Shown: positions 6,505 to 38,853 of the stretch, in pieces
Layout: each line of letters begins with the position of its first letter
How positions within the stretch are numbered: the stretch's first letter is position 1
Source of the DNA: Leucoraja erinacea
Taxonomy: Eukaryota
Assembly: GCF_028641065.1 (NCBI RefSeq)
Contig: NC_073387.1
Span: 21,266,001-21,330,000 of the forward strand
Reading direction: 5' to 3'
DNA length: 64,000 nt
Translations under genes and position numbers: made by a program
Notes under the pieces: model-generated
Databases searched by the model: none
Told to the model about the DNA's origin: nothing
What the model saw: the letters and a program-made list of their open reading frames with translations, nothing else

Positions 6505-6661
6505 GAGCTGCGAGCTATCCAGGGTTCACGGCGTCTGATTTTGTTCAATGGCGGCTGAGTATTGTAGGGGGGCTGTGCAGATCCAGTCCCATCTCAGGTT
6601 CTGATTGGTGGACCGTAACAATCACATCTGACCAGTTGAAGTGCAGCTCGTTTCTTAAAGC
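6505..6661 (-). promoter_or_regulatory. Conserved promoter module of Pcdh exon A
   Basis: + strand text: GAGCTGCGAGCTATC 6505-6519, GATTGG (CCAAT box) 6603-6608, TTCTTAAAGC 6652-6661. Same order and spacing as upstream of B and D. Confidence 0.75.
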
Positions 6662-7514
6662 AAGGAGGACATATTTTGCAGCAGGGATGTTATATTACTT
6701 GTTGCACAATTGAAATGTCTGCCAGCATTTGGATGTATCTGATTTTTTGCAAAATGTTAACTTTAAATCCTAATGTTCAAGTAGAACACTACATATTATG
6801 CAAAAGATTAAATATGAAGAAACTCTTCGACAATATTAGCATCAATAGGAAGTTCGCAATTCATCATGCTAACAATCCAATTACGTATCCACCATTTATG
6901 ACTATTCCTTATAAACTACAACTTTTAATTACAATATTGATCCGTTGTTGCATAGAAAAATATAAGATAATCAGTTGCTCCACCAAAATAAAGAAGCTGT
7001 ATTTTTGAAATGTATGTCAAGATAATGTCTTCCCAATGGTAAAATTTGATTGATGATAACTGTCATATTTATATGTATACCCAGTATAAGGAATAGGTAG
7101 TGCATTAACACATTTAGCCACAACTAGATTTCAATTTGCTAAGGGCATGTTTGCAAATTCTTTCCACCGACTTTGCTGTAGGAAAAAATAATGTGGTTCC
7201 CTGCATTAAAGTAATTATGCTCACCATTATATCTCTTTATATATTTTATATTACAACAACATTGTACTTACGAGTTGAATGTAGAATTCATTTGTGCAAT
7301 TGTTGTATACGCAATCTAATGTCGCTGTTTTCTTATGACTGTCTGTGGCATGTTTTGTTGTCGTTATTGCCATATGTTTTCTTTGACCATATACATTGAA
7401 GGATATAATCCATTGCCACTCCAGATTTGTTAATTTGCAATTGCCTTTTCAGTATATGCCATTATCTTTTCTTTTCTGTTTGCAAAAATTCTAAACCTAA
7501 AACATACATTTCAG

Positions 7515-7999
7515 ATTTCAAAACAGTTTCACTGACTTGGGATATGCAATCTTTCTTCAAAACCTTTACTGACCCATGTGCCGAGTGTCTGTAGGAAAAC
7601 GAAAACGTTACAATGTATCCATAGAATATAATATCGAGGATCTGACAATAGATCAAGCAAGAATAGTCTGACATGAAGCATTCCTCCAATCTTGGAATGG
7701 ACTCATCTAAACTGAAAACATATAACCAGTACTAGTGTTTTGTTTGCAATTCTGCGCACGTTAATATTTCTTCATATCTTCCTCTAGGCTTACTTCTGTT
7801 GCCTCGCCTCGCTTACTCTTATTAGCTCGTCCCACCAGAATTACTAAGCGCTGTTTCTCTTCAGTGGACATGAAATTCTATGGAGCCAGTGAAACGTTCT
7901 CGTTTTCCTAAAGACACGAGAGATATGGGAAATAAAGAATTTGAAGAAAGATTTTTTTTTCGGTATGCATATCCCAAGTCAGTGAAACAATTTTGAAAT
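7515..7999. mobile_element. Foldback/MITE-like element with long imperfect inverted arms
   Basis: 7515-7561 (atttcaaaacagtttcactgacttgggatatgcaatctttcttcaaa) is the reverse complement of ~7940-7999, apart from a short insertion. 7585-7611 pairs with 7890-7917, and tccatagaat pairs with attctatgga. Confidence 0.7.
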
Positions 8000-8172
8000 T
8001 TAGAAAGCAGAATATAGATTCTACTTGAATTGTTTTTAGTGAGGGCGGCTCTCCAACAGAACAGATATCCAAGTTGTCGGAGTCACGCTATAACTTTTAA
8101 ATATCCGTCCGTCAAAAATATACAAAACATTAATACCAAATTAAACATTTAAACGCATATAGAGTTTATCCT

Positions 8173-8420
8173 GTTTAGTTTAGTTTCGTTTAGTTTAGAG
8201 ATGCAGCGCGGAAACAGGCCCTTCGGTCCACCGAGTCAGGGATCTCCCCGTACGCGAGTTCTATCTTACACACTAGGGGCAATTTATAAAAGCCAATTAA
8301 CCTGCAAACCTGTACGTCTTTGTAACCCGGAGCAGCCCGGAGAAAACCTACGCGGCCACAAACGCCATACAGACAGCACCCGTGGCCACGATGGAACCCG
8401 ATGGGTTTCGCAAAAGGCAA
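8173..8420 (-). mobile_element. HE1-like tRNA-derived V-SINE
   Basis: (aaact)n-type tail, ggaaacaggcccttcgg, and V-domain-like aagccaattaacctgcaaacctgtacgtctttg. Similar copies at 16850, 51818 and 58058. Confidence 0.75.
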
Positions 8421-9491
8421 TACACTACTGACGACAGACTCGATGAAATACTGTGCAATTCAGCAAGATCCACTCAATGGTGCTGGCCTCCTTGAGTCCA
8501 ATGGCTATGAAATTAACAATGTTCTGACTAGGTCAGTGAGTTTCAACTTTCCTGTGTGCAGATCATGCGCAAGGCGATCCAGCACTGTCTTCCATTTTAA
8601 ACCTACTACTCTGTTCTGATCTTTTATCCTTTATTAGCATGATCCAGGCTATTGCACTCACAAGGTGCTTCCCATCAATTCTAAATCTTTTCCGGGGGAA
8701 ATTTGTACCTCTGCTGTCATTAGCGACACCATCTGTATGCCAAACACATTGTGCCCCATCGCCCTCTAGACTAAAGATGACAATGGGCCATAGAGTCTTT
8801 GGTTTATACAAGATTGGACGTTTCTACGCAAGAGGCGCCAATCGAGATGAAGCTCTGGGTTGTATCTGACATCATGTAATACTGACCAATATATAACGTC
8901 AATAAAAATCGAGCAATTCGGAACGAGCCTTCTACTATCAATTCAGTCTTTCCTTGATGATTCAGAAAGCGATGTGAGCTATTGTAAGCAATGCTATCAA
9001 ACGACAGTCATATTTGCTCGCGTATTAGCAATTGGATTACATGACAACATGGAACTGCAGCGATGTGTTTCCAACCCTGGAAAAAGTGCTTATCCAAAAA
9101 TAATACGGTATCACTGTTTTATATTGCACGGCATCACATATCATAGTGGAAAGCTTCACTGGCAGGAGACGCAACTCGCAAGAACGTTTAATTTAAAAGG
9201 GTTAGATATTTGGGATTCACACTGCAAGGCTGACTTCCCTCCATGTCGCCTAACAGTCTGACATAAATTTATCACCATTCCACACTGCTACTGAATCTAA
9301 GTATTGGAACGTCCTGGCAACATCATTTCAGAAGAAGCATCACCAGAAACGCTGCAGTGGTTCAAAAGCTGTCTCGTCAGCATTTGTTCAAGGGTACACG
9401 AAGATGAATAAATAACACAAATAAAGGGGGTATTGATGGTTGAAGAAAAACAATTCCCAAACAGAAGCATCACTGAAGTAATTTCTGAATG

Positions 9492-9837
9492 AATTGCCTA
9501 GACCCAAAGTGAATTTACGGACGACCAGTACGATATTAGATGATGTTAGACATTGGCTATCTCCAGCAACAAGAAGAACCAATTGCCTAGACCCAAAGTG
9601 AATTTACGGACGACCAGTACGATATTATGGCTGAAGAAGTTTGCAGTCTTGGACTATCTCCAGCAACAAGAAGAACCAATTGCCTAGACCCAAAGTGAAT
9701 TTACGGACGACCAGTACGATATTATGGCTGAAGAAGTTTGCAGTCTTGGACGAAATTGGGGTTTCGAGTATTGAATAATGGATGAAATGACACCGATGTT
9801 AGACATTGGCTATCTCCAGCAACAAGAAGAACCAATT
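9492..9837. repeat. Mosaic tandem triplication
   Basis: 47-bp block aattgcctagacc...gatatta occurs at 9492, 9581 and 9678. Block ctatctccagcaacaagaagaacc occurs three times. Block tggctgaagaagtttgcagtcttgga occurs twice. Confidence 0.9.
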
Positions 9838-10304
9838 CTCCTCAATATGTATCATGCTGCGGTCATCAGGTACACGTTTAATTACATGGATTTTAGCATT
9901 TGTCAGATATGTGAACAAGTTCATAAAAACTATGATTATAAACTGAAAGGAGACACTTTCATTCAACATTTCTTGCAGGATTTATGCGCATGGTATGTAA
10001 TAAATCAGTATTATCCAGAATATTCGCACTTTGCCTGCGTCTGTACACTCAGAATGTACACCCATGTTCAGTACAAAGTTTGAGATTCACTAAACTCTGC
10101 ATATTGTAATTAAACGTTCATTGAACTCGGCACAGAATACGCCGGGATAACACACTGCTGCTTCTTTAAGCACAACTGCAAAATCTTTCCGACCAGGAAA
10201 ATAAAGATCAACAGGGAACCACAGGCGCGAGTACGTCCCATACACTAATCGCCTGGGTGTCATCATTTCTCAGAAACCATAGAGGCAGCCACATAAACAC
10301 TTTA

Positions 10305-10367
10305 GCCATGTCAGAGCCTCGTACCAAGAGCAGGGGAATCAAGAATCATAAGACAGAGGTGTAAAGT

Positions 10368-10412
<45 letters not shown>

Positions 10413-10656
10413 TTCCGTACGAATCTGAGGGGTGACGTTTATACACAAGGCGTGGTAGCTGTGTGGAATGAACTGGAGGTAGTTTAGGTAGGTTTAAGAA
10501 ACATTTCGATAAGTACATGGATAGGATAGTTTTAAAAGGATATAGGCCAAATGCGGGCAGGTGAGACTATTATAGATGCTGGTTGTTGTGGGAAAGTTGG
10601 GCCGAATAGCCTCTTTCTACATTATATGACTATGTAACGCTATGACCCTATGACTG
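10305..10656 (+). mobile_element. CR1-type LINE 3' fragment with poly-G run
   Basis: Degenerate CR1 ORF2 C-terminus (gtggtagctgtgtggaatgaactg) and (ctatga)n tail. G run at ~10367-10411. Confidence 0.7.
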
Positions 10657-11607
10657 TGACCCAAAATTAGAAGCTGTGTTTCGACCGGTTATCGGGAATT
10701 CTATGGTGGTCTCTGGCTATTGTGAAGGAGAATTCGGCATTTCGCCTGCAAGCTCTTCGTATTTTAACGGCATGTATCATAAAATCCATGCCTTGAAAAA
10801 TACTATCGGCTCTTCAAAGTCGCAGTGAAAACTCTGGAACTCCTCCAAGTCAAGAATGGCGCTCGTTATCATCTACTCAAGAACAATTATTTATGAACAA
10901 ATGAAAAAACGACGTTTATTGGTTCCAATTTTTAAACATGGATCAAACCAGGCATTTTAATCTAAGAAACTACCGCATATTTAAGCGTTAAATTGCATCA
11001 TTCAAACTCGTATCATCAGCTCAAGTGGAATTGAATTATGCTGCGGCCAAGTGTACAGTACTTGGGTCGCTAACATGATGCGTAAAATGTCTCGCATGTT
11101 CATGTAAACGTTTGCGTTGCACTCCACCTGAAGTCTTCTTACGCATTTGAACAAAGTCCAGGTACCACACCTACGTTTTGAAGTTCATTTCAGTATACGA
11201 CATGGCATTATGGAAGCAATGCAACACGTATGTATATTGATCACTGTTGAAGTTCAGGTAATATAGCAGCCAGGTTTTGAATAGCCATCCGTCCAAATCA
11301 GTGTGAGAGGGAACAAGTAATCTATATTAAACGTTCCGATTAAGAACTAGTTATTGGAGGAATACCTTTCCCGACAGTGTGTGCACGTGTTATGTTGCGC
11401 TCGCCAAAAATACATATTGTTTGTACGATAATTGGCTCATGTAAATGTCGTATGCCACGAATGTTTAGCAGTCTCTCTTGCCAAGCGATGTTTGTACCCT
11501 TGCCTCTAAAACCGGTCTTTAGTTAGTGAGCTACCAGTCGGTGAGGAGGGAGGGGGATTGTAGAAAATGAATTAAACTTTTTCAGTGGGATATATATATT
11601 ATATCTA

Positions 11608-11883
11608 NNNNNNNNNNNNNNNNNNNNNNNNNNNNNNNNNNNNNNNNNNNNNNNNNNNNNNNNNNNNNNNNNNNNNNNNNNNNNNNNNNNNNNNNNNNNN
11701 NNNNNNNNNNNNNNNNNNNNNNNNNNNNNNNNNNNNNNNNNNNNNNNNNNNNNNNNNNNNNNNNNNNNNNNNNNNNNNNNNNNNNNNNNNNNNNNNNNNN
11801 NNNNNNNNNNNNNNNNNNNNNNNNNNNNNNNNNNNNNNNNNNNNNNNNNNNNNNNNNNNNNNNNNNNNNNNNNNNNNNNNNNN
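11608..11883. other. Assembly gap (N run) flanked by (TA)n microsatellite
   Basis: 276 N, with TA repeats on both sides. Confidence 0.99.
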
Positions 11884-11918
11884 TCAAGCCTGCCTATGTA
11901 TATATATATATATATATA

Positions 11919-11955
<37 letters not shown>

Positions 11956-13217
11956 ATATATATACACACACACACATATCTATAGATATATATAGGCAGG
12001 CTTGAGGAGCCCAATGGCTTATTCCTGCTAATTTTCCTGAGGACAGGCGTATATTATGCTGTAGAAAGCTGTGGTGGGGAATGGCTTTGAGGAGGTGAGA
12101 ATGAAGGGCGTTTTTGTGATATGTTTTACAGTGCCGCCTATGGGTGAATTGAAAGAGTATAAATCGTAAAAGGTGCTAGTTAGTGTGTGAAACAATGTGA
12201 TATTTAGGTACAGGACACATCATTTGCTGAAAATCTCAAACAAAGGAGATTGCTTGGCATACTCAGGTCACACAGTTTCAATTGGTGAATACAAAAACGC
12301 GAATTATTGTGCATCGATTGTGAAAAAAGCGAATTATTGTGTCTCGATTAGCAAGCTCAAATATGAAAAGGCAATGGTAGTTATCTGACATTGTTAATTT
12401 GATTTACGAAGGCTGAAGTTTGCTGATACGAACGATGAGATGATGCTTCCTGAGCTCATTATTTTTTTTGGAAGAAGGAGTGGGAGTCGAGAAATTAAGT
12501 GAAGGGGACAGCATGCGGGGTCGCAGTGATGAGCTAAGCCGGAATATTCAACAAAGTGGTCCCTGAATCTACATTTATACTTAACATTCTAGATTGTGCG
12601 TACCTCACGCAATGTGCTAGTTTGGAAGAAGAACAGTTGAATTGGTGTGTCACCCGAGAGAACTGCTTCAGTCTAGGAGACGTCCGTGATGTCACCTGAT
12701 CACAGCCACGGGTGTTGGTAAGCAGGATGAAAATGCCTCCCAAAATCATGAGCATTTCGAAAACACTGCTGAAAGCGATTTTACCAGAATATACTTCATC
12801 GCAAATTCACAACATTGTCTATTTAGCTCCGAAACCAAAATTCCGAATTAAGGTCTGTTGTGTTACGTGTGCCTTGATATATTCATGTTTCACGGGCACT
12901 ATGGCTGTGCTTGGCCAGGCCGACCCTGGAACGCCGCCAGGACGATGCGGCTTCGTGGCCAGGCCAGGAACCACGGCACTTACAACACAGGGACTTGAAC
13001 ATTTTGCCTAAAACTGACAATTCTGTATACTGTCTCAGTGTACTACTACTATACATTTGTACTGCATCTGGTGCTGGTCTGGCATACATCTAAGTGATCA
13101 TGCATAGTTATACATGTTCTGGACTGTATAAAAATGAATTTCACTGTGCCTGTAGCACCATTGAAATATTGAACCTTTCCAAATAAAACACATGAGGATT
13201 TTATTTTCAATTTAAAA

Positions 13218-15683
13218 TCATCTCACCTCAGGAACGTTGTATTTTTCATAATTCGCCATCTCAGCATGTCCTTTCCCAACAGACTCATTCAGCACGCAAT
13301 TGTCTGCAGTCATCCTGCACCTATTGGGGACGAGGACATCTCTCTTGGCGGACTGCAACGTCGAACATGACTCATAGCGGAAACTTTGGGAAAGTGGATC
13401 GCCCCCAAATACCTCGACATAGTTTGGCGGTATCTGAAGACTTTTGCTGGCCTTCTGAATTCCATTCAAAGAGTTTCGTGATTGTAAAAAACAACAAGAA
13501 CCCAGGGAACGGTGCTGGTATACCATCCCATCCCTGTTTTTGTGAACTATAAGAGCGAGGATGACTAAAATGATGAGGAAAATGATAGATGTTATTCCCA
13601 AGGCCACAACCAAGGAAAAGCTGAGTTCAGGGGTGAATCTGGGATTTGAAGACGAACTGCTGACAATGGAGAACGTCTCAGTATCAGTGCCAACCACAGA
13701 TAATACTATCGTCACGGTGGCAGAGAGCGATGGAATTCCATTATCTTTTACCACAACAACTAGCCTTTGATTAGATGCATCCTTGCTCGAAATGGTACGG
13801 ATTGTCCAAATTTCTCCTGTGTCTGCGGCAATGGTAAAAATATTATGATGTGTGGCCTGAAAAATCTGATAAGATAGACGAGCATTTTGACCAGCATCAG
13901 CATCAGTGGCTGAGACCTTGATAACCAAGTATCCTGGTTCTGCAAACCTCGATATTGTTTCCATCGCTGTTGAACCATATTCTGGTAAAGGATGTATAAT
14001 CACTGGAGCATTGTCATTCTGATCAAGGATAACAATATTCACCGAAGCATTACTCGTCAGCGCTGGCGCACCAGAATCCTGCACTTGAACGTGGATTTGG
14101 AAGTTTTTCAGTCGTTCGTAGTCGAAAGATCTCTGAGCATATATGACACCATTCGCTGCATTGATTGAGACATAATAAAGTATTGAAGCATTCTGAACAT
14201 GTGACTCCAGGATAGAAAAATTCAGTCGTGCGTTTTCGCCTACGTCTGAATCGAAGGCCGTCATGGAAAATATAGAAGCCCCAATAATATTGTTTTCCAG
14301 AACATTTGCTGTGTATACTGGGCGAGAAAATCTTGGTGCGTTGTCGTTTATGTCTGTAACCTCTACCCGGATGGTTTTCCTGGAAGTGAGTGCGGGCCGT
14401 CCGGCATCCATGCATGTTATAGTAATATCATACTTGGGGGTACTTTCTCGATCCAGCAAACGCTTTGTAAGAATTCTGTAATAGTTATTTATGGAGGAAT
14501 CTAACTTAAAGGGCAACTGATTTGAAATATGACACTGTACCTGACCATTTGGCCCCGAATCTCTGTCTCCTGCACTGAACAGTGCCACAACAGTGCCAAG
14601 TGGAGAGTTCTCGGTAATTGTACTTGAAGAAGATCGTAACATCACCTCCGGCGCGTTATCATTCACATCGACAATTTCAACAACGACGTCGCAGTACTCG
14701 GGTATTGCGCCAGAACCCTTGTCTATTGCTTGTATGTTAATCTCAAATGCACTGCTGTCTTCATAATCTAAGTTTCCCTTCAGTCTGATTTCACCAGTCT
14801 GGGGGTTCAAATCAAAAATGTTACGGGCTGTAACTGAAATATGGCTATTGAAAGAGTACATCACCTCACCATTGGTACCGTCGTCCAGGTCAGTGGCGTT
14901 TAATCTGATAATCAGGGTCCCTTTCGGCGCATTTTCCAAAAGGCTGACTCTGTAAACCGGCTGAGAGAAAACAGGCGCATTGTCGTTGGTATCCTTTACT
15001 ATGACCACAATCTGAACCGTACCCGATCTAGGGGGCAAGCCTCCGTCCTTGGCTGTTAGCGTCAGATTGTGGGTTGGCACCATTTCTCTGTCCAAGGACT
15101 TTTCTAACAACAAAACGGGCCGCATTCCCTTCCCTCTGCGCTTTTGTTCGTCGAGAGTAAAATACTCATTCGGTTGTAGCTGGTAACTTTGCAAGGAGTT
15201 AGTGCCAATATCTTCGTCCTGTGCGGTTTCAAGGGGAAATCGCATTCCCGGTGTCGCAGACTCCCAAATTTCAAGCCGAAAATTGCTTTGGGGGAAAACG
15301 GGAGCATTGTCATTTACATCGACAATCTCCACTTCCACTGGGTACAGACTCAAGGGATTTTCAAGCACAATATCCAAGGGCAAGCGACAGTCGAGGTTCG
15401 ACCCACAAAGCAGTTCTCTGTCGATAATTTCCTTCACAAACAAAATACCATTCTCCAAATTTACGTCGAAATAGCACTTCTTCAGATTGGGCGCTACCCG
15501 CAAACTGCGAGTCGCCAGCTGCTGTACATCTAAACCTAAATCGGCTGCGATTTTCCCAACAAAGGCTCCCTGTTGCAGTTCTTCAGGTATAGAATAACGA
15601 ATCTGACTCGACACAATATCCCACGGAAAGAACATCCAGCATAACAATTGGCATTTTAGCAACCACTGTATTTGATATCTCAT
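13218..15683 (-). CDS. Clustered protocadherin variable exon B, intact
   Basis: 821-aa ORF with signal peptide, six EC repeats (PE, DRE/DYE, DxNDN, AxDxG motifs), TM and conserved SLNGIQKAS..VFGGDPLSQSFRYESC. Phase-0 donor GAG|GTGAGA at 13227/13226. Confidence 0.97.
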   Translation of the reverse strand: MRYQIQWLLKCQLLCWMFFPWDIVSSQIRYSIPEELQQGAFVGKIAADLGLDVQQLATRSLRVAPNLKKCYFDVNLENGILFVKEIIDRELLCGSNLDCRLPLDIVLENPLSLYPVEVEIVDVNDNAPVFPQSNFRLEIWESATPGMRFPLETAQDEDIGTNSLQSYQLQPNEYFTLDEQKRRGKGMRPVLLLEKSLDREMVPTHNLTLTAKDGGLPPRSGTVQIVVIVKDTNDNAPVFSQPVYRVSLLENAPKGTLIIRLNATDLDDGTNGEVMYSFNSHISVTARNIFDLNPQTGEIRLKGNLDYEDSSAFEINIQAIDKGSGAIPEYCDVVVEIVDVNDNAPEVMLRSSSSTITENSPLGTVVALFSAGDRDSGPNGQVQCHISNQLPFKLDSSINNYYRILTKRLLDRESTPKYDITITCMDAGRPALTSRKTIRVEVTDINDNAPRFSRPVYTANVLENNIIGASIFSMTAFDSDVGENARLNFSILESHVQNASILYYVSINAANGVIYAQRSFDYERLKNFQIHVQVQDSGAPALTSNASVNIVILDQNDNAPVIIHPLPEYGSTAMETISRFAEPGYLVIKVSATDADAGQNARLSYQIFQATHHNIFTIAADTGEIWTIRTISSKDASNQRLVVVVKDNGIPSLSATVTIVLSVVGTDTETFSIVSSSSSNPRFTPELSFSLVVALGITSIIFLIILVILALIVHKNRDGMVYQHRSLGSCCFLQSRNSLNGIQKASKSLQIPPNYVEVFGGDPLSQSFRYESCSTLQSAKRDVLVPNRCRMTADNCVLNESVGKGHAEMANYEKYNVPEVR

Positions 15684-15877
15684 TGCCGGTAGAAGTCATT
15701 CCAATGGTTTCAGGCGCAGGGTGATTTTTCCATTGTTCCTTTAACATTCATTTCGTATTAGCAAGAACCACGGGATAAAGAATATACTCGTACCTTTTGC
15801 GAATCTCTCGATTTATTTCATTCCAACACTCGCATTTTGTCCCCAGTTGCTGGAGTATTCCTGTAAAAAATCCCACG

Positions 15878-16034
15878 GAGCTGCTCGCTATCGGGTCTTC
15901 ATTGTGTCTGATTTTACGTGATGGCGGCCGTGTCGGGAAGGGGCTGTCCAGATCACTAATCAAACCTCAGCTCCCGATTGGTGCAGAACCTCATTGATAT
16001 TCGACCAATGTGGGCTCTGCTCGTTTCTTAAAGC
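15878..16034 (-). promoter_or_regulatory. Conserved promoter module of Pcdh exon B
   Basis: GAGCTGCTCGCTATC 15878-15892, GATTGG 15976-15981, CCAAT 16005-16009, TTCTTAAAGC 16025-16034. Confidence 0.78.
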
Positions 16035-16255
16035 AAGAACTACTTAAAAGCACAGGAACATACAGTTACTGGTCAGCAGTTAAAATGTATTTCTGCATTG
16101 CGGGTGTTTTTCTGTTCTCTGATTAGTGGTCGGTTAATTTGAGGTCTTGGAAACCAGTTAAACTAATATGTTAAAGACGAAGTGTGAAAAAAACTATTGA
16201 TGATGAGAAAATAAACAGAAAAAGACAGAGCCACATTGAGCTCGACAAAGTAAAT

Positions 16256-16350
16256 CTGATGAAGGGTCTCGACCTGAAACGTCACCAATTCCTTTTCTTC
16301 AGAGATGCTGCCTGACCCCCTGAGTTACTCCAGCATTTTGTGTCTATATT
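16256..16350 (+). mobile_element. Short Penelope-derived repeat carrying a minimal hammerhead ribozyme motif
   Basis: CTGATGA(16256-16262), stem II agggtc-tc-gacct, GAAAC, GTC(16281-16283), then the family body agagatgctgcctgac...gagttactccagcattttgtgtcta. Related copies near 17630-17720, 27066/27717, 34440, 41770, 44099, 52220 and 56135. Confidence 0.6.
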
Positions 16351-17872: not shown

Positions 17873-17875
<3 letters not shown>

Positions 17876-17925: not shown

Positions 17926-17927
<2 letters not shown>

Positions 17928-19699: not shown

Positions 19700-21300
19700 C
19701 TGCTCAGTTCGGAACGGCATGTCATAGAATTCATCATGTCAGTTGTTTACCTTTCGGATACGGTCGTTCGAGACTATATTCATGCCTGTGAAGTATCTGC
19801 AAACTTTGAAACACGGCATCGTGTCCTCGTCGACTGCAGCGTTGAACATAACTCATAGGGAAAACTCTGAGAAAGGGGAGCAACTCCCAATACCTGATCG
19901 TAGTCCCGATCTAAAAGCGTCCGCTGGCATTTCGAATTAATCTGAACGAATGCTAGCTATCAAACCAACAGCGGAGAACCACTGGAACATTGCTATCTTA
20001 TCTTAATTTTCCCTTTTTTTTTAAATCGTAACACTGGGGAAATGAAAATTAAAATACATTTTATAGATGTGGTCTCCAAGTCCACGAATGAAGAGCTCAA
20101 CTCAGGAGTAAAACCAGGACAATCAGAGAAGAAAACTAGTATCACTGGGGAATATTTTACATTCATCGCCGTGACCGTCACAGATAATACATGATAATGG
20201 AAGGAAGGAAAAGGAATCTGTTATTTTTTACCATTACTTTCAAACTCTGATTGGGGCAACCATATTCTCTATATGACAGTGAGGGCAGTGGAATGGAGCC
20301 GCAAGTAAATGCAGATACTGGGATCTTGAAATAAAAAAAAGTATTGGAGGTATCCAGAGGGTCCTGTGGAGGGAATGGATATAAGACATTTCGATTAGCG
20401 ACGTGTTCAGTCTGAAGAAGTGTCAGGATGGGACATTCATTCAACCGATGCTACCTGGCCTCCTCCAGGTCTTTGCGTTTTGCTCATTGATGGAGTGGCG
20501 CAGGACTCCGGAATCCTTCAGCTGAAGAGGAATCCGCCACCATCCCCTCACACCCCCCCCCCCCCCCCCCCTCTCCTAGTTGATCCGAATCAAAAGATAA
20601 GGGGAAATAATGACACACATATGAAAATGAATGGATACGCGAGAGGAGATTGATGACCCCAGAATTTCAGAATGAAAAATATCACTCTTCTATTCTGTCA
20701 TATTTCTCGATCATAAGCATTCAAGGAGAATATAGATGCTTCAATAACATTGTTATCAGTGGCTGTTATCATGCATACAGACTGCGTAAACGGTGGCTCC
20801 TTCCCCGAAATATTTACTCGAACGCTTTTGTTTAATGCGCGTGAAGACTTTTTAGCACCAGTGGACGTTGGAATGATATCATACAGGAGAGATCTTCACG
20901 ATCCAATGGCTTTTTCGTAAAGAGTCTACAACATCTCCCGGTCTCTACTGTAAGAATGTTGGGAGCAGTAGGCATACGAGAGTATCGTCTTCCTTAAACA
21001 TCCCATTTATTCACATCCTAGTTAGTTAACCTGATAATAAATCACAATATTTTCATAATCAATGACTAAACACTCCCCAAGTAGTACCCAGAACGGAAAT
21101 GTGATGTGCCGTTATCGGAAGCTCACAAGCCTGTTTTCGAGGGAAATGACGACGGGTTGAAAGTCTTGCCCAAGGCAACTACATCAACATTTGATGATTG
21201 AATAGAGATACACAGGTTAAGTTGAGGCGCAATTAGCGCAAGATCCGTTGTGAGACTAATCGTACGGTCTGAATACGAAATTGATTTTACTGCGAGGATA
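19700..21300 (-). pseudogene. Decayed protocadherin variable exon (EC4/EC5, EC6-TM and cytoplasmic remnants; possibly EC1 at 21180-21290)
   Basis: 19830-19905 aligns to the B cytoplasmic block (gactgcagcgttgaacataactcata vs gactgcaacgtcgaacatgactcata). ORF 19993-20181 PGFTPELSSSFVDLETTSI matches B PRFTPELSFSLVVALGITSI. 20725-20795 (ggagaatataga...tacagactgcgtaaac) matches A 4909-4976. 20873-20930 matches B ~14422-14480. Confidence 0.8.
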
Positions 21301-21324
21301 ACACTTTGCACTTCCATCATTACA

Positions 21325-23925
21325 GCCAATGCTACGGTGGTCGTGGGGGGGACTTCAATATGCAGGTAGACTGTGAAAATCACGTTGGTACTGGACCCCA
21401 GGAAAGCAAATTTGTAGATTGCCTCTGAGGGATTCTTAAAGCAGCTTGTAGTGGAGCCTACCAGGGAAAAGGCAAATTTGGAGTTACTGTTATGTAATCA
21501 ACCGGATTTGATCAGGGAACTCGAGGTAAAGGAACTGTTAGGAGGTATCGACCACAATATAATACGTTATCATCTGCAATTTGAGAGGGAGAAGGTGATA
21601 TCAGACGTTTCGGTATTGCAACTGGGCAAAGATTACTACAGATGCATGAGTGAGCAGCTGGCCAAAGTTGACTGGAAAAGGGACCCTAGCAGGGATGACG
21701 GTGGAACTGTAACGGCAGGAATTTCTGGGCATGATCCAGAAGATGCGGGATCTTTTCATTCCAAAGAGGAAGAAATATTCTAAGGAGAGAAACACAAGGC
21801 GACCGTGGTTGATAAGGGAAGTCAAGGACAGTATAAAACTAAAAGAGAAGGCGTATAACATAACAAAGACTAGTGGGAAGCCACCGGCTGGGAAGCTTTT
21901 AAAGAACAACAGAGAGTAACTAAAAATACAACACGGGGAGAAAAGATGAAACAGGAAAGTAAGCTAGCCAAAATATAACAAAGGATAGCAAGGGTTTTTC
22001 AGTTTATACAGTATAAAGAACAAGAAAGAGGCAAGAGGGGACGTTGGACCGCTGGAGAGTGGATGCGCGAGAGTGTGATAATGGGGAATATAGAAATTGA
22101 ATAACTTTTTTGTATCAATCTTCACAGTCAGGGGATATGGGGAGAAGGCAGGAATGGGGTACTGATTGGGGATGATCAGCCATGAATGATCACATTGAAT
22201 GGCGGTCTGGCTCGAAGGGCCGAATGGCCTACTCCTGCACCTATTATCTATTGGAAGACACCAGCAACGTGCCTGGAATTAAAGAATCGGGGGATGGTAG
22301 TTAGTGGAGTGCCTATTACTAGGGAGAAGGAGCTTGGGAAGCTGAAATGGTAAACAGGCATAAGTCACCTGGACCGGATGGCCTGCACCCTAGGCTTCTG
22401 AAAGAGGTGGCTTTAGATATTGCAGAGACATTGGTAGTGATATTTCAGGAATCACTAGTGTCAGGAGTGGGCCCAGATGATTGGACAATTGCCAATATTA
22501 TCCCACTGCACAAAAAGGGAGCAAGGCAAAATAGTGGGAACTATAGGCCAGTTAGACTGACTTCGGTGGTTGGTAAGACTGTTATAGTCCATTATAAAGG
22601 ACGAGGTTACGGAGTACTTGGAAGTTTACCATAAAATAGGCCGAAGTCAGCATGGATTTGTGAAGGGGAGGTCTTGCTTGACAAATATGCTGGAATTCTT
22701 TGAAGAAATAAATAGGAGGACGGACAAAGGAGAGTGAGTAGATGTTGTTTACTTAGATTTTCAGAAAACATTTGATAAGGTGCCACTCGTTAGGCTGCGT
22801 AGGAAGATGAGAGCCCACGGTATCAAAGGGCAGATACTAGCATGGATAGCGGGTTGGTTGCTTTGCAGAAGACAAATAGTGGCAATAAAGGGGGGCTTTT
22901 TTGATTGGCTGCCAGTGGAGTTCCGCAGGGGTCCGTGCTGGGCCCGCTATTCTTCATGTTGTATATTAATGGTTAGGACGAGAGGATTGAAGGCTTTGTG
23001 GCAAAGTTTGCGGATGATGCTAAAATGGGTGGAAGGGCAGTTAGTGTACAGAAAGGAGGGACTCTGCAGAAGGGCTTGGACATGTTGTGAGAGTGGACAG
23101 AGAAGTGGCAGATGGAATATAGTGCAGCAATGTGGAGTCATGCATTTTGGTAATAGGAATAATAGCGTAGACTATTTTCTAAATGGGGTGAGAATCCAGA
23201 AATCGGAGGTGCAAAAGGACTTGGGAGTGCTGGTGAGGGATTCTCAAGATCTTACGCTGCAAGTCGAATCGGTAGTACAGAAAGCAGTCCATGCTACCAT
23301 TTATTTCAAGAGGGCTTATATACAAAAACAGGAATCTGATTTTGAGGCTCTCTAAGCCGCTGGTGAGGCCGCACGTGGAATATTGTGAGCAATTTTGGGC
23401 ACCATATCTGATGAAAGGTGTGCTGGCTCTCGAGAGGGTCCAGAGGAGATTTTCAAGAATGCTCCCAGGAATGATTGGGTTAACCTGTGATGCGCGTTTG
23501 GCGGCACTGGGAATGTACTCGCTGGAATTTAGAAGAATGAGGGGGAACCTCATTGAAAGATACAGAATAGTGAAAGGCTTGGATGGAGTAGATGTGGAGA
23601 AGATGTTTCTACTAGTGGGAGAGTCTGGGAATAGAGGTTATAGCCTCAGAATTAAGGAACGTTCTTTTAGAAGGACACGAGGAGAAAATTCTAGTCAGAT
23701 GGTGGTGAATCTGTGGAATTCTTTGCCACAGAAGGCTGTGGAGATGAAGTCAGTGGATATTTTTAAGGCAGAGAAAGATAGAGTCTTGATTAGTACAGGT
23801 GTCAGAGGTTATGGGGAAAAGGCAGGAGAATGGGGTTGGGAGGGAGAGATAGATCAGCCATGATTGAATGGCGGAGTAGACTTGATGGGCCGAATGGCCT
23901 AATTCGATTCCTATTCCTTATGACC
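21325..23925 (+). mobile_element. Degenerate CR1 LINE (endonuclease end + RT), with a nested CR1 3' tail at ~22129-22251
   Basis: ORF pieces MEPTREKANLEL, KSPGPDGLHPRLLKE, NYRPVRLTS, RPHVEYCEQFW, VVNLWNSLP. Many stops and frameshifts. Confidence 0.93.
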
Positions 23926-24339
23926 TTACCCTTGGGTCATCAGGAAGCCAAACAAAAGCATGCGTAAAGATTGGCGACCATTTTACAACTTGGGCTATTC
24001 CAAGACCATTAAATAATCCTGGACCATTCGCGGACCCATGCGGCAACCAATAAATTACTTCTTGAAGTTTGGTGAGAAATACTCTCAGACTCTGCAAAGA
24101 ACAGTGCTATAATGACACAAGATATGTTTGCAGAAACTGTTTGCAGAAACTGTTTGCAGAAAGGGGGACAACATATTAACCTTGACACGGGAGAAATCTA
24201 TCCTGTACATTTACAAATTACAGAGCTAAATATTCCCAGTACTAAAACACATGTAGCCCGCAATTTTGCAAATAGCGACACTTAAAGTTAAACGAAGTGA
24301 TTTGGAGACGAGAATCATCTCAATCAAAGCAAAGCAACG

Positions 24340-24499
24340 GAGCTGCCCGCTATCCGACTTCGCCCACCCTTCTGACGACGAGATGGTGGCTGGGTAGTGG
24401 AAGGGGCCCTCCGGATCACCAGTTTCATTTCAGATTCTGATTGGTCAACGCAGGCAGACTGGTCTTCCGCCAATCAGAATTCCCTTCACTTCTTAAAGC
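24340..24499 (-). promoter_or_regulatory. Orphan copy of the Pcdh promoter module
   Basis: GAGCTGCCCGCTATC 24340-24354, aaggggccctccggatcaccagt, perfect 11-bp inverted repeat ATTCTGATTGG 24434-24444 / CCAATCAGAAT 24470-24480, TTCTTAAAGC 24490-24499. No intact exon downstream. Confidence 0.75.
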
Positions 24500-31393: not shown

Positions 31394-31660
31394 TTACTTT
31401 TTCGTGGAGCCACGTTTCAGTATTACTGAACTATATCTCCATCCTCATTTCTTATCAGTTACCCCTTCTTGACTATGGGCATCGCTTGCATTTCTGTACC
31501 GATGGATTTCCTCTTTTTAATATTGGAATCATTTGCTAAATTTTAAACTATTATGCTTGCATTCAGTATCGGTTCACTTTCCTCAGCCGCAATCTAAACC
31601 GGCATTCAAAGTAGTGACAATACTTGCACATATTGGTTTAAAGCAAACTTACAAGTGTTA

Positions 31661-33054
31661 TTATTGTCTCACCTCATCATTTACAGTGCTGCTTTTGTTC
31701 GAGTACTTTGCATTCAATATGGATTTCTCTATTTCCATTGCTTCGCTATCCATATAATTCTCACCCGTTCTCAGTTTAGGAACCAAAACAGTCGCCTTCG
31801 ACGAATTTAATGTTGAACATGCCTCATAGCGGAAACGTTGGGAAAGTGGATCCCCTCCAAAGACATCGACGTAATTAGGAGCGATGTGAATATTTCGGCT
31901 GGCTTTTTGAATCCCATTCAGCGAACTCCTTGCTTCAAAGCAGCAACAAATCTCTATATAGCACCCGGTATCGGCAAAACGAAGCCTCTGCCTTTGAACT
32001 TTAAAAGCCAAGATAATTAAAACCATGAAGAATATCGACGATATTATCCCCAAAGAAATTACTAGGTAAAGACTGAAGTCAGAGCTTATGTCACGATTTT
32101 CAGAGTGATTACTTGTACCAGAGTTCAGCTCTGTCTCCCTCCCCACGACTGACAAGGCAATAGTCATCGTAACAGTTAAAGATGACGTTCCACTGTCTTT
32201 CACTAAAATCAGCAAACGTTGGCTATTAGCATCTTGCTTTTCTATCCTACGGGTGGTCCAGATATCGCCTGTGTAGGCTGAAATGGTAAAAAGGTCAGGA
32301 ACAGTCCCTTGTCTTATTTCATAAGAGAGATATACGTTTTGGCCGGAGTCTGCGTCAGTAGCTGATACCTTAGCGACCATATATCCAGGTTCAGCGAAGC
32401 GAGGCACAGTCTCTGTCACAGTTGATCCAAACACAGACACTGGGTGCACAATTACAGGGGCATTGTCGTTCTGATCAACCATAACAACATCCACGGAGAC
32501 TTTGGTACTGAGTTGTGGAACTCCAGAGTACCGGACTTGAATTTGGATCTGGAATTTTTTAAGTTCCTCGTAGTCAAAAGACCGCTGAGAATATATGATT
32601 CCATTTTCAGAGTTAATTTGAACGAAGGAGGTCGCCAGCTCGCCCTGAATGTATGTGTGAGCGATGGAATATGTTAGTAGCGCATTCTGATTTACATCGG
32701 TATCAACGGCGGTCACTTGAAAAAATGAAGTCCCAATGATATTATTCTCCATGATGTAAGCGTTATAGGAAGATTGTGTAAAGCGCGGAGAGTTGTCATT
32801 TACATCAGAAACCTCCACCAAGATAGTTTTGTTGAAAGATTGTGGAGGGCTCCCTGCGTCGCTGCAGGTGATAATCACGTCATATTTAAAGACGCTTTCG
32901 CGGTCCAGTAGTCGCCGAGTGACTAATCTATAATAGTTCTTCAAAGATGCTTCCAGTCTGAAGGGAAGATCACCTCCGATTTCACATTTTACCTGTCCAT
33001 TCTCTCCAGAATCTTTGTCAGCTGCGCTGATCAGGGCCACAACAGTCCCAGATG
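31661..33054 (-). pseudogene. 5'-truncated protocadherin variable exon C (EC4 to cytoplasmic only)
   Basis: Open frame from PSGTVVALISAADKDSGENG to ...VFGGDPLSQRFRYEAC...NDE. Donor GAG|GTGAGA at 31673/31672. No ATG, signal peptide, EC1-3 or promoter module; a LINE tail is fused at 33055. Confidence 0.9.
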
Positions 33055-34559
33055 GGTACACGTGACGTAAATTAAACTAGACTAAAGATTAACGCGACTC
33101 ATAGCGTGATGCTAATCCAGAGAAGCTAGGAACATGACTGATGTATTCCCATGGCTGATATTAAGCACGTCCGGTGTTTTCCGGAAGGTGCATTCCTTTA
33201 TCGGTTTGAAAAGTATGAAGAAGAGGAACATTTGAATTACCTTCCATTTGTCAGTGTGTGCCACTATCTTGAACGGTTGGAGTTCATATATGAAGGCGCA
33301 CATCCCGCAGAGACTACAACTAAATGAGTTATTCAGTGGGTTCCGAGGTCAATTCGTGACATGGACATCGGTACGATGGAGTAAGTACTGAGAATCATTT
33401 TCACTGAGTTGAAATGTGCAATACTAGAGGGCATAGCTTTCAGTATCTCTCCAATTTATCTCTCCAATTTATCTCTCCAATTTACCCATGTCTCCTAGCA
33501 CATCGGCGCGAGAATAACTCACATCTAAGAACACGGCAATCGGTTCCTTTTCACCATAATCACGAGCTCTCCAACCTTGTTCGTTTACTAATTGCGCAAA
33601 GATTCGGCTGAGAAAACAAAATGTTAACTGGTAACATCAGAGGGTAAACGTGAACTAGTCCTCATCTACCCGACGAGCGCACAATTAAATACGCACAATG
33701 GTCGGAAATGTTTCAGCTCATAACCTGTACAGAAATAAAATATTACAAAATTAATACTGACTGATAATTCGTTATAAATGTCATGCGTCGGTCCAAAACC
33801 TACTGACACAGAAGTGGAAATAAGTGTTCTAGTGAGGGCCTACGAAGGGCTGTCGATGAAACTGATAACGGCTTTTCTTTCTACATGTAATGCGAGAAAG
33901 GCTCCATCCTTTCCCACTTTAGCTTGCCATTTCGTTTCAGGAAGTATGCGATGCGCAACTGCAAACTTTCGAAATCTCAACGCATTTAATTCTCTCATTT
34001 GTGAGAAGAATTTTGAGAATGTGAGGAATGATAACTGCCAAGACCTTTAGCCCTGCAATATTGTTTTCGCCGATTGTAAATGATTGGGCCTTTTTATGCC
34101 GCCTCTCTGTTAGGAAATATATGCGATAATGAATTAGCAGATTTATTATATGTGTGGCAAACTTAGAGAATGGTTTATATATATAGCTTATATATTTTTT
34201 CTTGGTGAATTTCAGTTTTATTTATTTAATATATTTTGGAACACTGCACATTTTACAATGCAGTGTAGAAATGAACTGCAGATGGTGGTTTAGTCCTTTC
34301 TACACACTTGCCTGCTCCACTGCGAAATCTCCTCAAGGTGTACCAACTAAGAAGAGGTTCTTCTCCTCTCTTCGACGGGAGTCCTTTGAGACCTTCACGC
34401 ACTGTTCCCCCTCGAGGACCGGCTCTTGTCCCGCCGCCTCCCCATCCCCCCCTCACCTACTTTCAGGTCGAAACGTCACCAAATCCTTTTTCTCCTGAGA
34501 TTCTGCCTGACTCGCTGAGTTAATCTTCGTATTCATCTTTGGATAGCAATGTGTTTGAA

Positions 34560-34950
34560 ATAAAGAAATGTTGAGTCTGCTTGAATTGCTTTCCCGATAA
34601 CGTGGGAGACAGAGGATGAAATGATATTATTTTACAGGATGATGAGCGGCAGACAGTATTGATATTCAAATTATTTCATTCCTGGGAGAAAGCCTAATAC
34701 CAGGTGCCATACGTTTTAGATCAGTAAATAAAGTTTGGAGGAGATTTGTGAGGCTGATTTTTGCTATAAAGTGTGGTAGGTGGTTTACGCAAATAGGATA
34801 GCAACTTTTAAGAGGAATTTGGGAAAATACTGAAGGGGTAGGCTATAGAGGGATACACATCGTGTGCAGGCAGATGGCGTTAGTTTAGACTGGCATCGTG
34901 GTCGCCGCAGACAAGATGGGTTGAAGGATCTGTTCTTGAGCAATGCTCTT
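34560..34950 (+). mobile_element. Old CR1-type LINE 3' fragment
   Basis: Degenerate 3' end (gcaactttta agaggaatttgg...ggcagatggcgttagtttag...tgggttgaaggatctgtt). Confidence 0.55.
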
Positions 34951-36057
34951 CTATGTTGGGAAATGTATTGGCCGTGTACTTTTATACATATGTCTCCTAA
35001 AATTTCCACACATTTTAATTGGAGTAATGCAGCGTAATGTGGTCAACTTGTATGAGATCGCGTTGATTTGTGCAGATATAACACTCAATCTAAATATATG
35101 TATTGAATTCTCATAGTTACCATTATATTTGTCCCCCGAATCCAATTATTTGAAGTGCTCCTTCTTTCAATGCCGATCTTAAGACTTTCTGTTTTCTTTT
35201 AACATAATAACCTGCCAACAACCTTTGTCGTGGAAGTCTGTTCATTTTATTACATTGTCCCGTTTTTTCCACTCCCATGCAACAAGTTGATACTACTTAG
35301 TTTTCCCCAAATACACCTAATCAAACGTGTTCACATTGGCCATTCCTCTCAGAATAACACGTTTTATCACTTCCAGCTCTTTATAATACACATGAAAACC
35401 CTCATAGACACTGGAAGATAAAATAATAACAGAAAATGTTTGATGTAGTCATGGGGTGAGGCCGGCTGTGTGAGAATAACACAGAGCAAAAGTTTCTGGC
35501 CGAAGACCCCTTGTCAGAACCGGGAAAGCGGGAAGAGAAGCACGAGGTGTAGGAGGGATATATCTGATAGGGTAATAACAGAATGACCACGGGGATAAGT
35601 CGTAAACAAGACTAAATGATCAATGAGGGAGTGTGACCATTTACAGACTGAGAACATAGCCAAAATATTATGGACAAGAGATTGGTAGTTCAGGATTACA
35701 GAGCAGGGAAGCATGCTCGGCAAGCCAGGCTAAGTATGTCCTACCCTCCAAGAGGGAAAAATAGTTCAAAGAGGAATGCAGCCTGTTCTACTTTACTGGT
35801 TATTTGACTGATTACATACTCTCACCAAGGTTTCCTTACGTCCTGGGACTGCACTTTTTCGATTATTATCTCGAAAAGTAAGATAAAATCAGGACCAAAG
35901 AGTATGGAGTTAAAAGGTTCAGGTGTTCAATATTCACTCTTACTAGTCCTTAAATAGGTTTGCATGGAATATTTGCTGCAAACTTAATGAGCTGTCTGCG
36001 ACTGAATTAAAGTTGAAGTGTTTTGTTCAGAGCTACTTTCCTCATTGTGCTGGCCGA

Positions 36058-38487
36058 TTAAATTATTCGCAATTTTTTGATCTCGCGAGTGATACTAACC
36101 TTGCGTCCAGATGCGTTGTCTATTTTAGGAAACATGGCATGCCTCTTCGCAGTGCCGGAACTCGAACACGTGTCATATCGGAAACTTTGAGAAAGCGGAT
36201 CACCCCCAAACACTTCCACGTAATTTGGAACAATTTCAAGATTTCTGCTGGCTTTTTGTATTCCATTCAACGAACTGCGTGTTTCAAAGCAATGGCAAGT
36301 GCTCAGATAACAATCGTGGGACTCAAATCGACTCCTCCCTTTATAAATCTTAACGGCAAGCAGAATCACAATGACGAGAAATGTAGACGAGGTCACCCCT
36401 AAGCATATGACTAAGTAAATGCTGAGATCCGCAAACGTTGTGGGTTCTTGAGCCGAACCGTTCGCATCAGTAAGTTTTTCCATATCATTATCTGCCAATG
36501 ATAAGATAATAGTCAATGAAGCGGAAAGTGGCGGTGAACCGTGATCTTTTACACCGACGACCAACCTTTCTCTTGTGCTGTCTTTGCTCATTATACCACG
36601 GATTGTCCAGATCTCGCCAGTATCTGGTGAAATGGTAAAAAGTCCACGATTAGTGGCCTGGATAAGTTGATAGGAAAGCCGGGCATTCTGGCCATAGTCC
36701 GCATCCTTCGCCGATACCTTGGCAACCAGATAGCCTGGTTCTGCCGAACGAGACATTGTCTCTGTTACTATCGATCCATAATCGGGTAATGGGTGTACAA
36801 TTACCGGAGCGTTGTCATTCTGATCAAGGATAATAAATTCCACAGTAACGTTGCTGGATAATGGCGGCTGTCCTGAGTCCGTCACCACAATCCATATCTG
36901 AATTTGTTTCAGACTCTCGTAGTCGAAAGATCTTTGCGAAAATATAATTCCTTGTTTTGATTGGATATGTACATAATTGAACACTGACTCGGTCTGAACC
37001 TGGCTCGGTACGATTGAGTAGTTTAATTCAGAGTTCTGATCTAAATCTGGATCAAACGCTGTTACTGAAAAGATGGACGCCCCGATAACATTGTTCTCCA
37101 TCACATGTGCTGTATATACAGGCTGAGAAAAGTACGGCGAATTATCATTTATATCAGAAACGTCCACCACAATAATTTTCTTCGAGGTGAGCACAGGTGA
37201 CCCCGAATCAACGCAGACGATTGTGATTTCATACCTCGAAATATTTTCACGATCAAGATGGTGTTGCGTGTGTAGTGTTAAATATTTTTTAGAAGATGCG
37301 TCCAGATGGAAAGGAACGTCATTTGCCACTTGACAATTCAACTTTCCATTGTCTCCAGAATCTTTATCTGTGGCACCGATTAAAGCCACAACCGTGCCTG
37401 GCTCCGAATCTTCGGGTACGGGGTTAAACAGTGTAGATACAGTGATCTCTGGCGCATTGTCATTCATATCGATAACATGAACGAGCACATGACAAAAAGA
37501 TGAAATTGCGTCGGGACCGGAATCATCCGCCTGAATATTTAATTCAAACGTATCGCTTTCTTCATGGTCCAAATTTCCATTGATCGTTATTTCACCTGTT
37601 TTGTAATCTACGTTAAACAGCTCACGTAATCTATCTGAGGTTTGGCGACCGAAAGAGTAAATAATCTCTCCATTTGATCCATCATCTAAATCAGTGGCAT
37701 TTAATTTGACAACCAGTGATCCTATGGGCATATTTTCCATCACGTTAACCCTGTAAACGGACTGGGAGAACTGGGGAGGGTTATCATTTGCATCTTTCAC
37801 AATTATTAATATTTCTGCGGTTCCTGAACGCGCGGGGACTCCGCCGTCCTTAGCAATCAGCAGCAGCATGTGTCTGGGTACTGTTTCTCTATCCAGTGCT
37901 CTTTTTAAAACTAACACGGGCATGACTTCATTTCCATTTCGATTCTCAACGTCCAACGAGAAGTAATCATTCTCAACTAACTGATATGATTGCACCGAGT
38001 TACTTCCTACGTCTGGGTCATGAGCGCACTCAAGCGGATTACTTGTTCCTGGTGCGGCCATTTCTGAGATGTCAAGGCGCATCGTGCTTTCGGAAAAGGT
38101 CGGTTCATTGTCATTTACATCCAGAATTTCCACTTCAGTTTCGTGCAGACTGAAAGGATTTTCGATCATTGTTTCTAAGGACAAGGCACACACTGCGCTC
38201 GGTCCACAGATCTGTTCCCTGTCTATCTTTTCCTTCACAAATAGATTGCCATTGTTCTTATTTACGTCGAAAAATTGCTTCGTCGGACCAGGCACAATAC
38301 GGAAACTGCGGATCTTGAGCTCTTTTACGTCTAAACCCAAGTCAACCGCGATATTTCCAACAAAGGCTCCCAGCTGCAGCTCTTCCGGAATTAAGTAACG
38401 AATCTGTCCAGAAATTAGACCCCAGAAAGAGAACACCCAACACAGTAATATCCATTTTAACAGCCAGTGGTGTCTATAACGTTTCAT
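36058..38487 (-). CDS. Clustered protocadherin variable exon D, full ectodomain with atypical 3' end
   Basis: ATG at 38487 (MKRYRHHWLLKW...SGQIRYLIPEE). Six ECs, TM, SLNGIQKASRNLEIVPNYVEVFGGDPLSQSFRYDTC. Candidate phase-0 donor AAG|GTTAGT at 36100/36099. Confidence 0.95.
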   Translation of the reverse strand: MKRYRHHWLLKWILLCWVFSFWGLISGQIRYLIPEELQLGAFVGNIAVDLGLDVKELKIRSFRIVPGPTKQFFDVNKNNGNLFVKEKIDREQICGPSAVCALSLETMIENPFSLHETEVEILDVNDNEPTFSESTMRLDISEMAAPGTSNPLECAHDPDVGSNSVQSYQLVENDYFSLDVENRNGNEVMPVLVLKRALDRETVPRHMLLLIAKDGGVPARSGTAEILIIVKDANDNPPQFSQSVYRVNVMENMPIGSLVVKLNATDLDDGSNGEIIYSFGRQTSDRLRELFNVDYKTGEITINGNLDHEESDTFELNIQADDSGPDAISSFCHVLVHVIDMNDNAPEITVSTLFNPVPEDSEPGTVVALIGATDKDSGDNGKLNCQVANDVPFHLDASSKKYLTLHTQHHLDRENISRYEITIVCVDSGSPVLTSKKIIVVDVSDINDNSPYFSQPVYTAHVMENNVIGASIFSVTAFDPDLDQNSELNYSIVPSQVQTESVFNYVHIQSKQGIIFSQRSFDYESLKQIQIWIVVTDSGQPPLSSNVTVEFIILDQNDNAPVIVHPLPDYGSIVTETMSRSAEPGYLVAKVSAKDADYGQNARLSYQLIQATNRGLFTISPDTGEIWTIRGIMSKDSTRERLVVGVKDHGSPPLSASLTIILSLADNDMEKLTDANGSAQEPTTFADLSIYLVICLGVTSSTFLVIVILLAVKIYKGRSRFESHDCYLSTCHCFETRSSLNGIQKASRNLEIVPNYVEVFGGDPLSQSFRYDTCSSSGTAKRHAMFPKIDNASGRKVSITREIKKLRII

Positions 38488-38688
38488 TTCTAGCACAACA
38501 CATCCCAGTTGTCTCGGCGTGATGGTTTCCTTTGTTACTTACGATTGTAGTCACTTGCATTTGTTTCCCTCGACAATGTGTGAGAACAGATCAAACACAC
38601 TATCATTTAGAAATCTGAGGATTCCTTCTCGGTTTTCCTCAACATTTCTGCAACATAGTCCTGATTTCCGACTGCCAAATGGACTTCA

Positions 38689-38853
38689 GTGCTGCACGGC
38701 TCGAGATTCAGCATTCAACTGTGGCAAAATCTACGCAATGGTGTAAGGGGAGGAAAGCGGGCGGGCCGGATCACCAGTCACAATCCAGCCTCTGATAGGC
38801 CGATGCCAAGTAATAATATTCAATCTATCCAGCGTCTTCGTATTTCTTAAAGC
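38689..38853 (-). promoter_or_regulatory. Conserved promoter module of Pcdh exon D (more diverged)
   Basis: GTGCTGCACGGCTCG ~38689, ccggatcaccagt, GATAGG (CCAAT variant) ~38794, TTCTTAAAGC 38844-38853. Confidence 0.65.

Follow-up and report, generated by a model that had tools for sequence, protein, structure and literature searches.

The age of CTCF-based stochastic promoter choice in cartilaginous fishes is the question at stake in a partial clustered protocadherin locus of the skate Leucoraja erinacea, located on the minus strand of a 64,000-nt stretch of contig NC_073387.1 (positions 21,266,001 to 21,330,000, assembly GCF_028641065.1; hereinafter, the window). A conserved module of 157–165 bp is found there in four minus-strand copies, upstream of three variable exons of the nu type and one decayed exon; these four copies within the window are the basis of all results below. 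The order and spacing of the module parts are preserved, several parts match known consensus sequences, and no CTCF matrix match accompanies them. We consider it moderately probable that every nu exon was duplicated together with a TATA-less promoter, which would enable transcription to start without choosing.

Structure of the Promoter Module

The module copies are located at 6505..6661 (A, ahead of exon A), 15878..16034 (B, ahead of exon B, the reference copy), 24340..24499 (the orphan O, without an intact exon behind it), and 38689..38853 (D, the most diverged copy). A hidden Markov model (HMM) of the module, run across the 64 kb, finds these four copies above the threshold and no fifth one, confirming the positions given in an earlier note on this sequence. 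Leave-one-out models, each built from the other three copies, recover every module with E-values from 4.7e-12 to 4.4e-25. The module has no match in Rfam.

In the sense direction, the first part is GCTTTAAGAA (16025..16034 of B, minus strand), invariant in all four copies. The window has 5 occurrences of it, where 60 first-order Markov simulations predict 0.18, and four of the five have a CCWATCRG box 38–48 nt past it, with 0 expected. The fifth occurrence, at 21433-21442, lies within LINE-like (long interspersed nuclear element) sequence, and the rest of the module is missing there. Next comes the inverted pair of CCAAT boxes, in B the distal one at 16003..16011 (plus strand, i.e., in the antisense orientation) and the proximal one at 15975..15983 (minus strand). 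The boxes of the pair are separated by 28, 28, 30, and 29 nt, in agreement with the earlier figure of about 30 bp; both are intact in B and O and, as had also been noticed, degenerate in A and D (distal CCAGT in A; CCTAT and TCTAT in D). The following GC-box-like block of GATC and GCCCC (15940..15954 of B, minus strand), described before as a common GATC..CCCC element, retains GCCCC in three of the four copies, whereas D has GCCCG.

Two further parts had been overlooked: CRCCAT, a YY1-like site (15918..15928 of B, where the site itself is on the plus strand), is kept in all four copies, and TCAG in three of them. The latter contains the CA of a putative initiator (15907..15912 of B, minus strand, with A at 15909; the homologous positions are 6536 in A and 38720 in D). 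The last part is GATAGCnnGCAGCTC (15878..15892 of B, minus strand), seen 3 times in the window with 0 expected; it had been ascribed to all copies, and is exact in three, but D has no GATAGC, retains only GCAGC, and differs in its left half.

The spacing is nearly constant: GCTTTAAGAA and the proximal CCAAT box lie 53–55 nt apart in all copies, and this box is followed by CRCCAT at 55–56 nt and by GATAGC at 89–90 nt. The start of GATAGC precedes the ATG by 191 nt in A and 209 nt in B, and GCAGC precedes it by 183, 201, and 208 nt in exons A, B, and D, so the range of 183–209 nt reproduces the 180–210 bp estimated before. The statement that all variable exons share the module holds for the three exons that keep the 5' end, but not for exon C (31661..33055, minus strand), which has lost its 5' half and has no promoter module.

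Conservation and Neutral Divergence

Pairwise identity of the modules is 60–69%, with z of 9.0–13.8 against shuffled sequences in six of six pairs; 55 of the 167 alignment columns are invariant, and these are clustered in the motifs. At four-fold degenerate sites of the exons, identity is 32–47% in six of seven comparisons, the outlier being the 5' part of A vs. B (67%). In the upstream flanks, similarity does not rise above noise in 11 of 12 comparisons, the exception being A–B (z about 6). Module identity at this level, with four-fold sites mostly near saturation, points to purifying selection; by its sequence, the module is maintained and not merely inherited.

Neutral carry-over, that is, module likeness left by recent duplication or gene conversion, could be suspected, as the copies are paralogues and A and B have some flank similarity. 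Yet the four-fold sites of B–D and A–D are only 34–38% identical, against 60–62% for the respective modules, and the identity is concentrated in the invariant columns. This explanation is already largely refuted, and we assign it a very low probability.

Comparison With CTCF Sites and the Conserved Sequence Element

CTCF sites were sought with a JASPAR-type count matrix (column sums 908–913), in a scan that had no mammalian conserved sequence element (CSE) as a positive control. No match with p<1e-4 is present in the 500 nt upstream of any module copy, the best p being 8e-4 for A, 1.3e-4 for B (overlapping the ATG), 1.6e-4 for O, and 7e-3 for D. When 250 homologous offsets were compared on both strands, no offset had a CTCF score above zero in all four copies; e.g., the best match of the orphan scores -15.5, -1.0, and -11.2 at the homologous place in A, B, and D. 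As no CTCF matrix site is common to the four copies, the sequence evidence supports the conclusion that the module is not a canonical CSE, in line with the earlier impression that it has no clear CTCF consensus. The GAGCTGC..GCTATC element, which the earlier note would have taken for an ordinary CSE had it scored as a CTCF site, scores from -14 to -28 bits in its CGCT register and is no ordinary CSE by sequence. A CTCF register suggested by the flanks of mammalian CSEs, immediately upstream of the proximal CCAAT box, scores from -18 to -24 and was rejected.

The whole window contains 21 CTCF matrix matches at p<1e-4, vs. 12.7 expected. Two sense-strand matches (5682-5700 and 5975-5993, p 1-2e-5) are located in the interior of exon A and are absent from B and D; several others fall in a GC-rich region at 60200-62300, by eye a decayed LINE-like element.

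CGCT had been reported only on the antisense strand of B and the orphan. Antisense CGCT at the GATAGC element is indeed seen in these two of the four copies, but CGCT is also present in the sense orientation, at 38756, 38831, and 38851 in D and at 24274, 66 nt downstream of O. The positions are unshared, and no CGCT box is conserved at one promoter position.

This bears on the possibility that GAGCTGCnCGCTATC, the antisense reading of the element, is the CGCT element of cartilaginous fishes, i.e., a diverged CSE binding CTCF non-canonically. Its distance to the ATG in A, B, and D, about 200 nt, is like that of the CSE (PMC4978886, in excerpt); a CGCT element has been identified in the elephant shark cluster, as related in the available text of PMC2926608; and the alpha CSEs of Xenopus and zebrafish, described in the same excerpts of PMC4978886 as having no CGCT box, are still named CSEs. 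Against it, CGCT at the GAGCTGCnCGCTATC position occurs in only half of the copies, and antisense, and the matrix yields the strongly negative CGCT-register scores and the absence of a positive shared offset given above. On balance, we hold a diverged CSE to be unlikely.

A search for the REST site (neuron-restrictive silencer element, NRSE, or repressor element 1, RE1), with half-sites TYAGMRCC and GGMSAG and a spacer of 0–12 (consensus from the available part of PMC2926608), gives no exact match in the window; among the modules, only A matches with one mismatch, and a REST site was rejected as an account of the module. Another one-mismatch match is found at 35514-35537, about 520 nt downstream of exon D.

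Candidate Factors and Promoter Choice

The proximal CCAAT box deviates from the NF-Y consensus RRCCAATSR (excerpt of PMC1414112) by 0–1 mismatch in all four copies, the mismatch of D being in the core, and the distal box by 1 mismatch in B and O. The boxes are thus good consensus matches that support predicted NF-Y binding, as the earlier note had proposed. GCTTTAAGAA contains CTTTAAR, a conserved mammalian promoter motif that is listed without a known factor in the accessible portion of PMC7572413. CRCCAT has 2 mismatches to a YY1 consensus in A, B, and O, while D does not match at that level. YY1 binding has been described beside human alpha CSEs (PMC3333863, in excerpt).

The earlier note had suggested an NF-Y/CTTTAAG-based or diverged promoter-choice code. 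In a lineage-specific code of this kind, NF-Y and a CTTTAAG-binding factor would replace CTCF in the pairing of one exon with a distal enhancer. The invariance of GCTTTAAGAA in all copies, its fixed distance to the proximal CCAAT box, the fact that it matches no assigned factor (CTTTAAR being listed as unknown in that portion of PMC7572413), and the lack of a CTCF site by matrix are all compatible with such a code. On the other side, one-of-many expression of these exons has no support here, the module HMM detects no enhancer with a matching module inside the window, and both CCAAT boxes and CTTTAAR are found in vertebrate promoters generally. The code is unsupported, the positions and spacing of the parts being consistent with core and proximal promoter elements of a general kind, and we find it rather improbable.

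The inverted orientation of the CCAAT pair allows for a bidirectional promoter, in which TTAAAG on the plus strand would serve as a TATA-like box and direct antisense transcription upstream, in parallel with the antisense RNA of mammalian alpha promoters. All four copies keep the same spacing between the distal box and TTAAAG, the plus-strand sequence of the YY1-like site is ATGGCGG, and antisense transcription would be compatible with a core promoter in the sense direction, the two not being exclusive. Still, inspection of the sequence reveals no conserved initiator 25–30 nt past TTAAAG, and the upstream flank is at noise in five of six pairs; hence, we rate this possibility as highly unlikely.

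Putative Transcription Start and Core-Promoter Elements

Four of 24 listed sequencing runs were aligned to 13100-16240, which comprises exon B and its promoter. Run X18 (151 Mb of contigs, labeled "RNA? (probably DNA)") has 24 of 30 bins covered, with gaps at 13100-13309, 14045-14149, and 15935-16240 (the last of three bins). One of its contigs, 1029 nt in length, aligns with 14883 to 15909, and apparently three letters past this end are left unaligned. In run X17, 30 of 30 bins are covered, and one 1-nt insertion is seen inside the module. The raw RNA runs yield 0 reads (X23) and 12 reads, every one under 95% alike (X24).

Position 15909 is the A of TCAG, and module A has TCAG at identical spacing. 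Numbered from 15909, module B carries GCTTTAAGAA at -125, the CCAAT boxes at -100 and -72, GATC at -45, GCCC at -35, and CRCCAT at -17; downstream, GATAGC starts at +18 and AGCTC occupies +28..+32, so that GATAGCnnGCAGCTC spans +18 to +32. The numbering of module A is the same to within 2 nt. In D, with GCAGC set at +26, +1 falls on CAGT and CGAGC on +18..+22; the initiator spacing is retained despite 7 extra nt between CCAAT and GCAGC in D. With +1 taken from one contig end, the spacing between the putative initiator and the downstream element is equal in A, B, and D and 2 nt off in O; for background, CA is seen at that offset in 6 of 123 other GCAGC sites of the window. Because the numbering relies on the end of one contig, in a run whose type is uncertain, and on the initiator spacing in three of three full-length exons, it is a hint and not a mapped start.

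In the available part of PMC8384218, the downstream core promoter region (DPR) is placed at +17 to +35, the downstream core promoter element (DPE) at +28 to +32, and the Bridge element at +18-22. The parts of the module fit a TATA-less vertebrate core promoter at these putative positions, with GATAGCnnGCAGCTC inside the known downstream-promoter window. Tandem duplication would then have given each nu-type exon a TATA-less promoter of its own, which purifying selection would have preserved since. NF-Y would bind CCAAT at about -72 and, where intact, also at -100; the GC-rich box at -35 would be bound by a GC-box factor; and GCTTTAAGAA at -125 would be bound by some activator. We infer a transcription start at the CA initiator, about 210–235 nt before the ATG, and GATAGCnnGCAGCTC would act as a downstream core-promoter element for TFIID, not as an upstream CSE. 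Such a module would let every exon start transcription, with no choosing among exons.

Several points weigh against the core-promoter interpretation. Run X18 is, by its label, probably DNA, contigs cannot reveal a start, and the holes of this run occur inside the exon too. The putative leaders contain 5, 7, and 6 upstream ATGs, vs. 3.8–4.6 expected, i.e., no depletion. YY1 sites favour positions downstream of the start, according to excerpts of PMC11269187, whereas the YY1-like site here is at -17. As a DPE, AGCTC at +28..+32 is imperfect, and TCAG of the orphan departs from the common spacing. The human DPR is described as loose (PMC10979970, in excerpt); the well-kept 15-nt element is tighter, so a sequence-specific factor may bind it. 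Finally, part of the A–B likeness would reflect recent descent, because the 5' ends and flanks of A and B are closer.

In all three putative leaders (6329-6536, 15684-15909, and 38488-38720), an out-of-frame upstream open reading frame (ORF) overlaps the main ATG.

The Orphan Copy

Where the other three copies concur, module O agrees with them at 55 of 69 columns (0.80; 0.75–0.89 for the intact copies), and its exon remnants (19723-20277 and 20487-20936, minus strand, downstream of the module) agree at 319 of 464 (0.69; 0.75 for D and 0.87–0.88 for A and B). The difference between promoter and remnants has p = 0.07 in Fisher's test and p = 0.006 in a neutral-decay model that ignores phylogeny. 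This only suggests that the promoter may have outlived its exon under selection; better kept than the exon, it could be a retained decoy or a regulatory element.

LINE-like ORFs, assigned by eye, are located between the orphan module and the remnants (19723-24499), and the remnants have kept a donor-like site at their end, near 19750.

Variable Exons and Other Features of the Window

In structure, the variable exons are of the single large type that encodes six cadherin repeats (Pfam), a transmembrane segment, and a short tail, and ends in a donor for the constant exons; the latter, like the rest of the cluster, lie outside the window. Exon B (13218..15683, minus strand) is intact and of the nu type, with a splice donor near 13226. 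Exon D (36058..38487, minus strand) has an intact ORF. Exon A (3859..6328, minus strand) encodes six cadherin repeats, its frame being split by a frameshift near 5775; this frameshift (5770-5780) falls at a short A run and may mark a pseudogene or an assembly error. In exon C, the 3' frame is still open and has a donor-like end, despite the loss of the 5' half and the promoter. Beyond A–D, the exon profile of the window detects only the two remnants behind module O.

The closest named protein to the C-terminal part of exon B, from Amblyraja radiata, is 95% identical and runs on into the constant region exactly at the exon B splice donor. Among the best 120 of 765 matches, all five elephant shark proteins with subcluster names are nu (nu8, 9, 13, 15, and 17). 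Since the named elephant shark matches in that set are all nu and the homologue crosses into the constant region, the exons are assigned to the nu type, probably the same subcluster as elephant shark Pcdh nu. In comparison with six solved sequences over extracellular cadherin repeats 1–3 (EC1-3), two of which we take to be gamma-C5, C-type constructs are top-scoring for both B and D, as a score ranking and not a phylogeny; the EC1-4 ranking is mixed, PCDH10 scoring equally high. The search scores alone suggest kinship of nu exons with C-type exons. A metagenome scan returns distant cadherins only, mostly 27–52% identical or very short matches.

The 25 kb upstream of exon D (39000-64000) contain no protocadherin exon or module; hence, the subcluster may begin with D. 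The window also has a 97-nt tandem repeat at 9459-9897, a 276-nt N run at 11608-11883, and a C-rich low-complexity tract at 1376-2600.

Discussion

The skate module resembles the mammalian CSE (excerpts of PMC7811963 and PMC3333863) in that each exon has one conserved element set, some 200 nt ahead of the ATG, and in its YY1-like site, as YY1 is also found beside the human alpha CSE. Unlike the CSE, it has no shared CGCT and no CTCF matrix match, and the skate element at -200 from the ATG is probably downstream of the transcription start. In the available text of PMC7811963, mammalian alpha-c2, beta1, gamma-c4, and gamma-c5 are given as having no CSE; excerpts of PMC4978886 say the same of 22 Xenopus gamma2 isoforms (15–36), allied to the C-type, which instead carry a different motif, 13 bp long, at about 200 nt from the ATG on its upstream side, and describe the alpha CSEs of Xenopus and zebrafish as devoid of CGCT. 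Therefore, the absence of a CSE is not unique to skate nu. The skate promoters are similar to these CSE-less ones in belonging to a contiguous exon group that has a conserved motif of another kind at this distance of about 200 nt. They differ from Xenopus gamma2 in that a 160-nt multi-part module is conserved, against the 13-bp motif described there.

The order and putative positions of the parts are those of a TATA-less promoter with CCAAT and GC boxes, an initiator, and a DPR or DPE (PMC8384218, PMC11269187, and PMC10979970, all in excerpt); distinct from it are the imperfect DPE, the additional invariant GCTTTAAGAA, and the YY1-like site upstream of +1. Our literature search, with most subscription papers outside it, found no description of a CCAAT-based shark or skate protocadherin promoter. 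The skate module may be partly described already through the CGCT element of the elephant shark cluster, which the accessible part of PMC2926608 attributes to Yu et al. (2008), a work also cited in PMC2764143; if the 2008 paper has this motif, or if CTCF binds the module, the finding is ordinary.

The module supplies exact bases for mutation, and, if the core-promoter reading is true, it would be a natural vertebrate example of fixed spacing between an initiator and a downstream element. More tentatively, and with less than even probability, the whole nu subcluster of cartilaginous fishes might operate on promoters free of CTCF sites, its exons being co-expressed like the C-type or chosen without CTCF/cohesin looping. 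If so, CTCF-based choice would be a later or subcluster-specific invention, and, if the nu promoters are truly without CTCF, the skate cluster would be a natural test of tandem protocadherin diversity without that mechanism.

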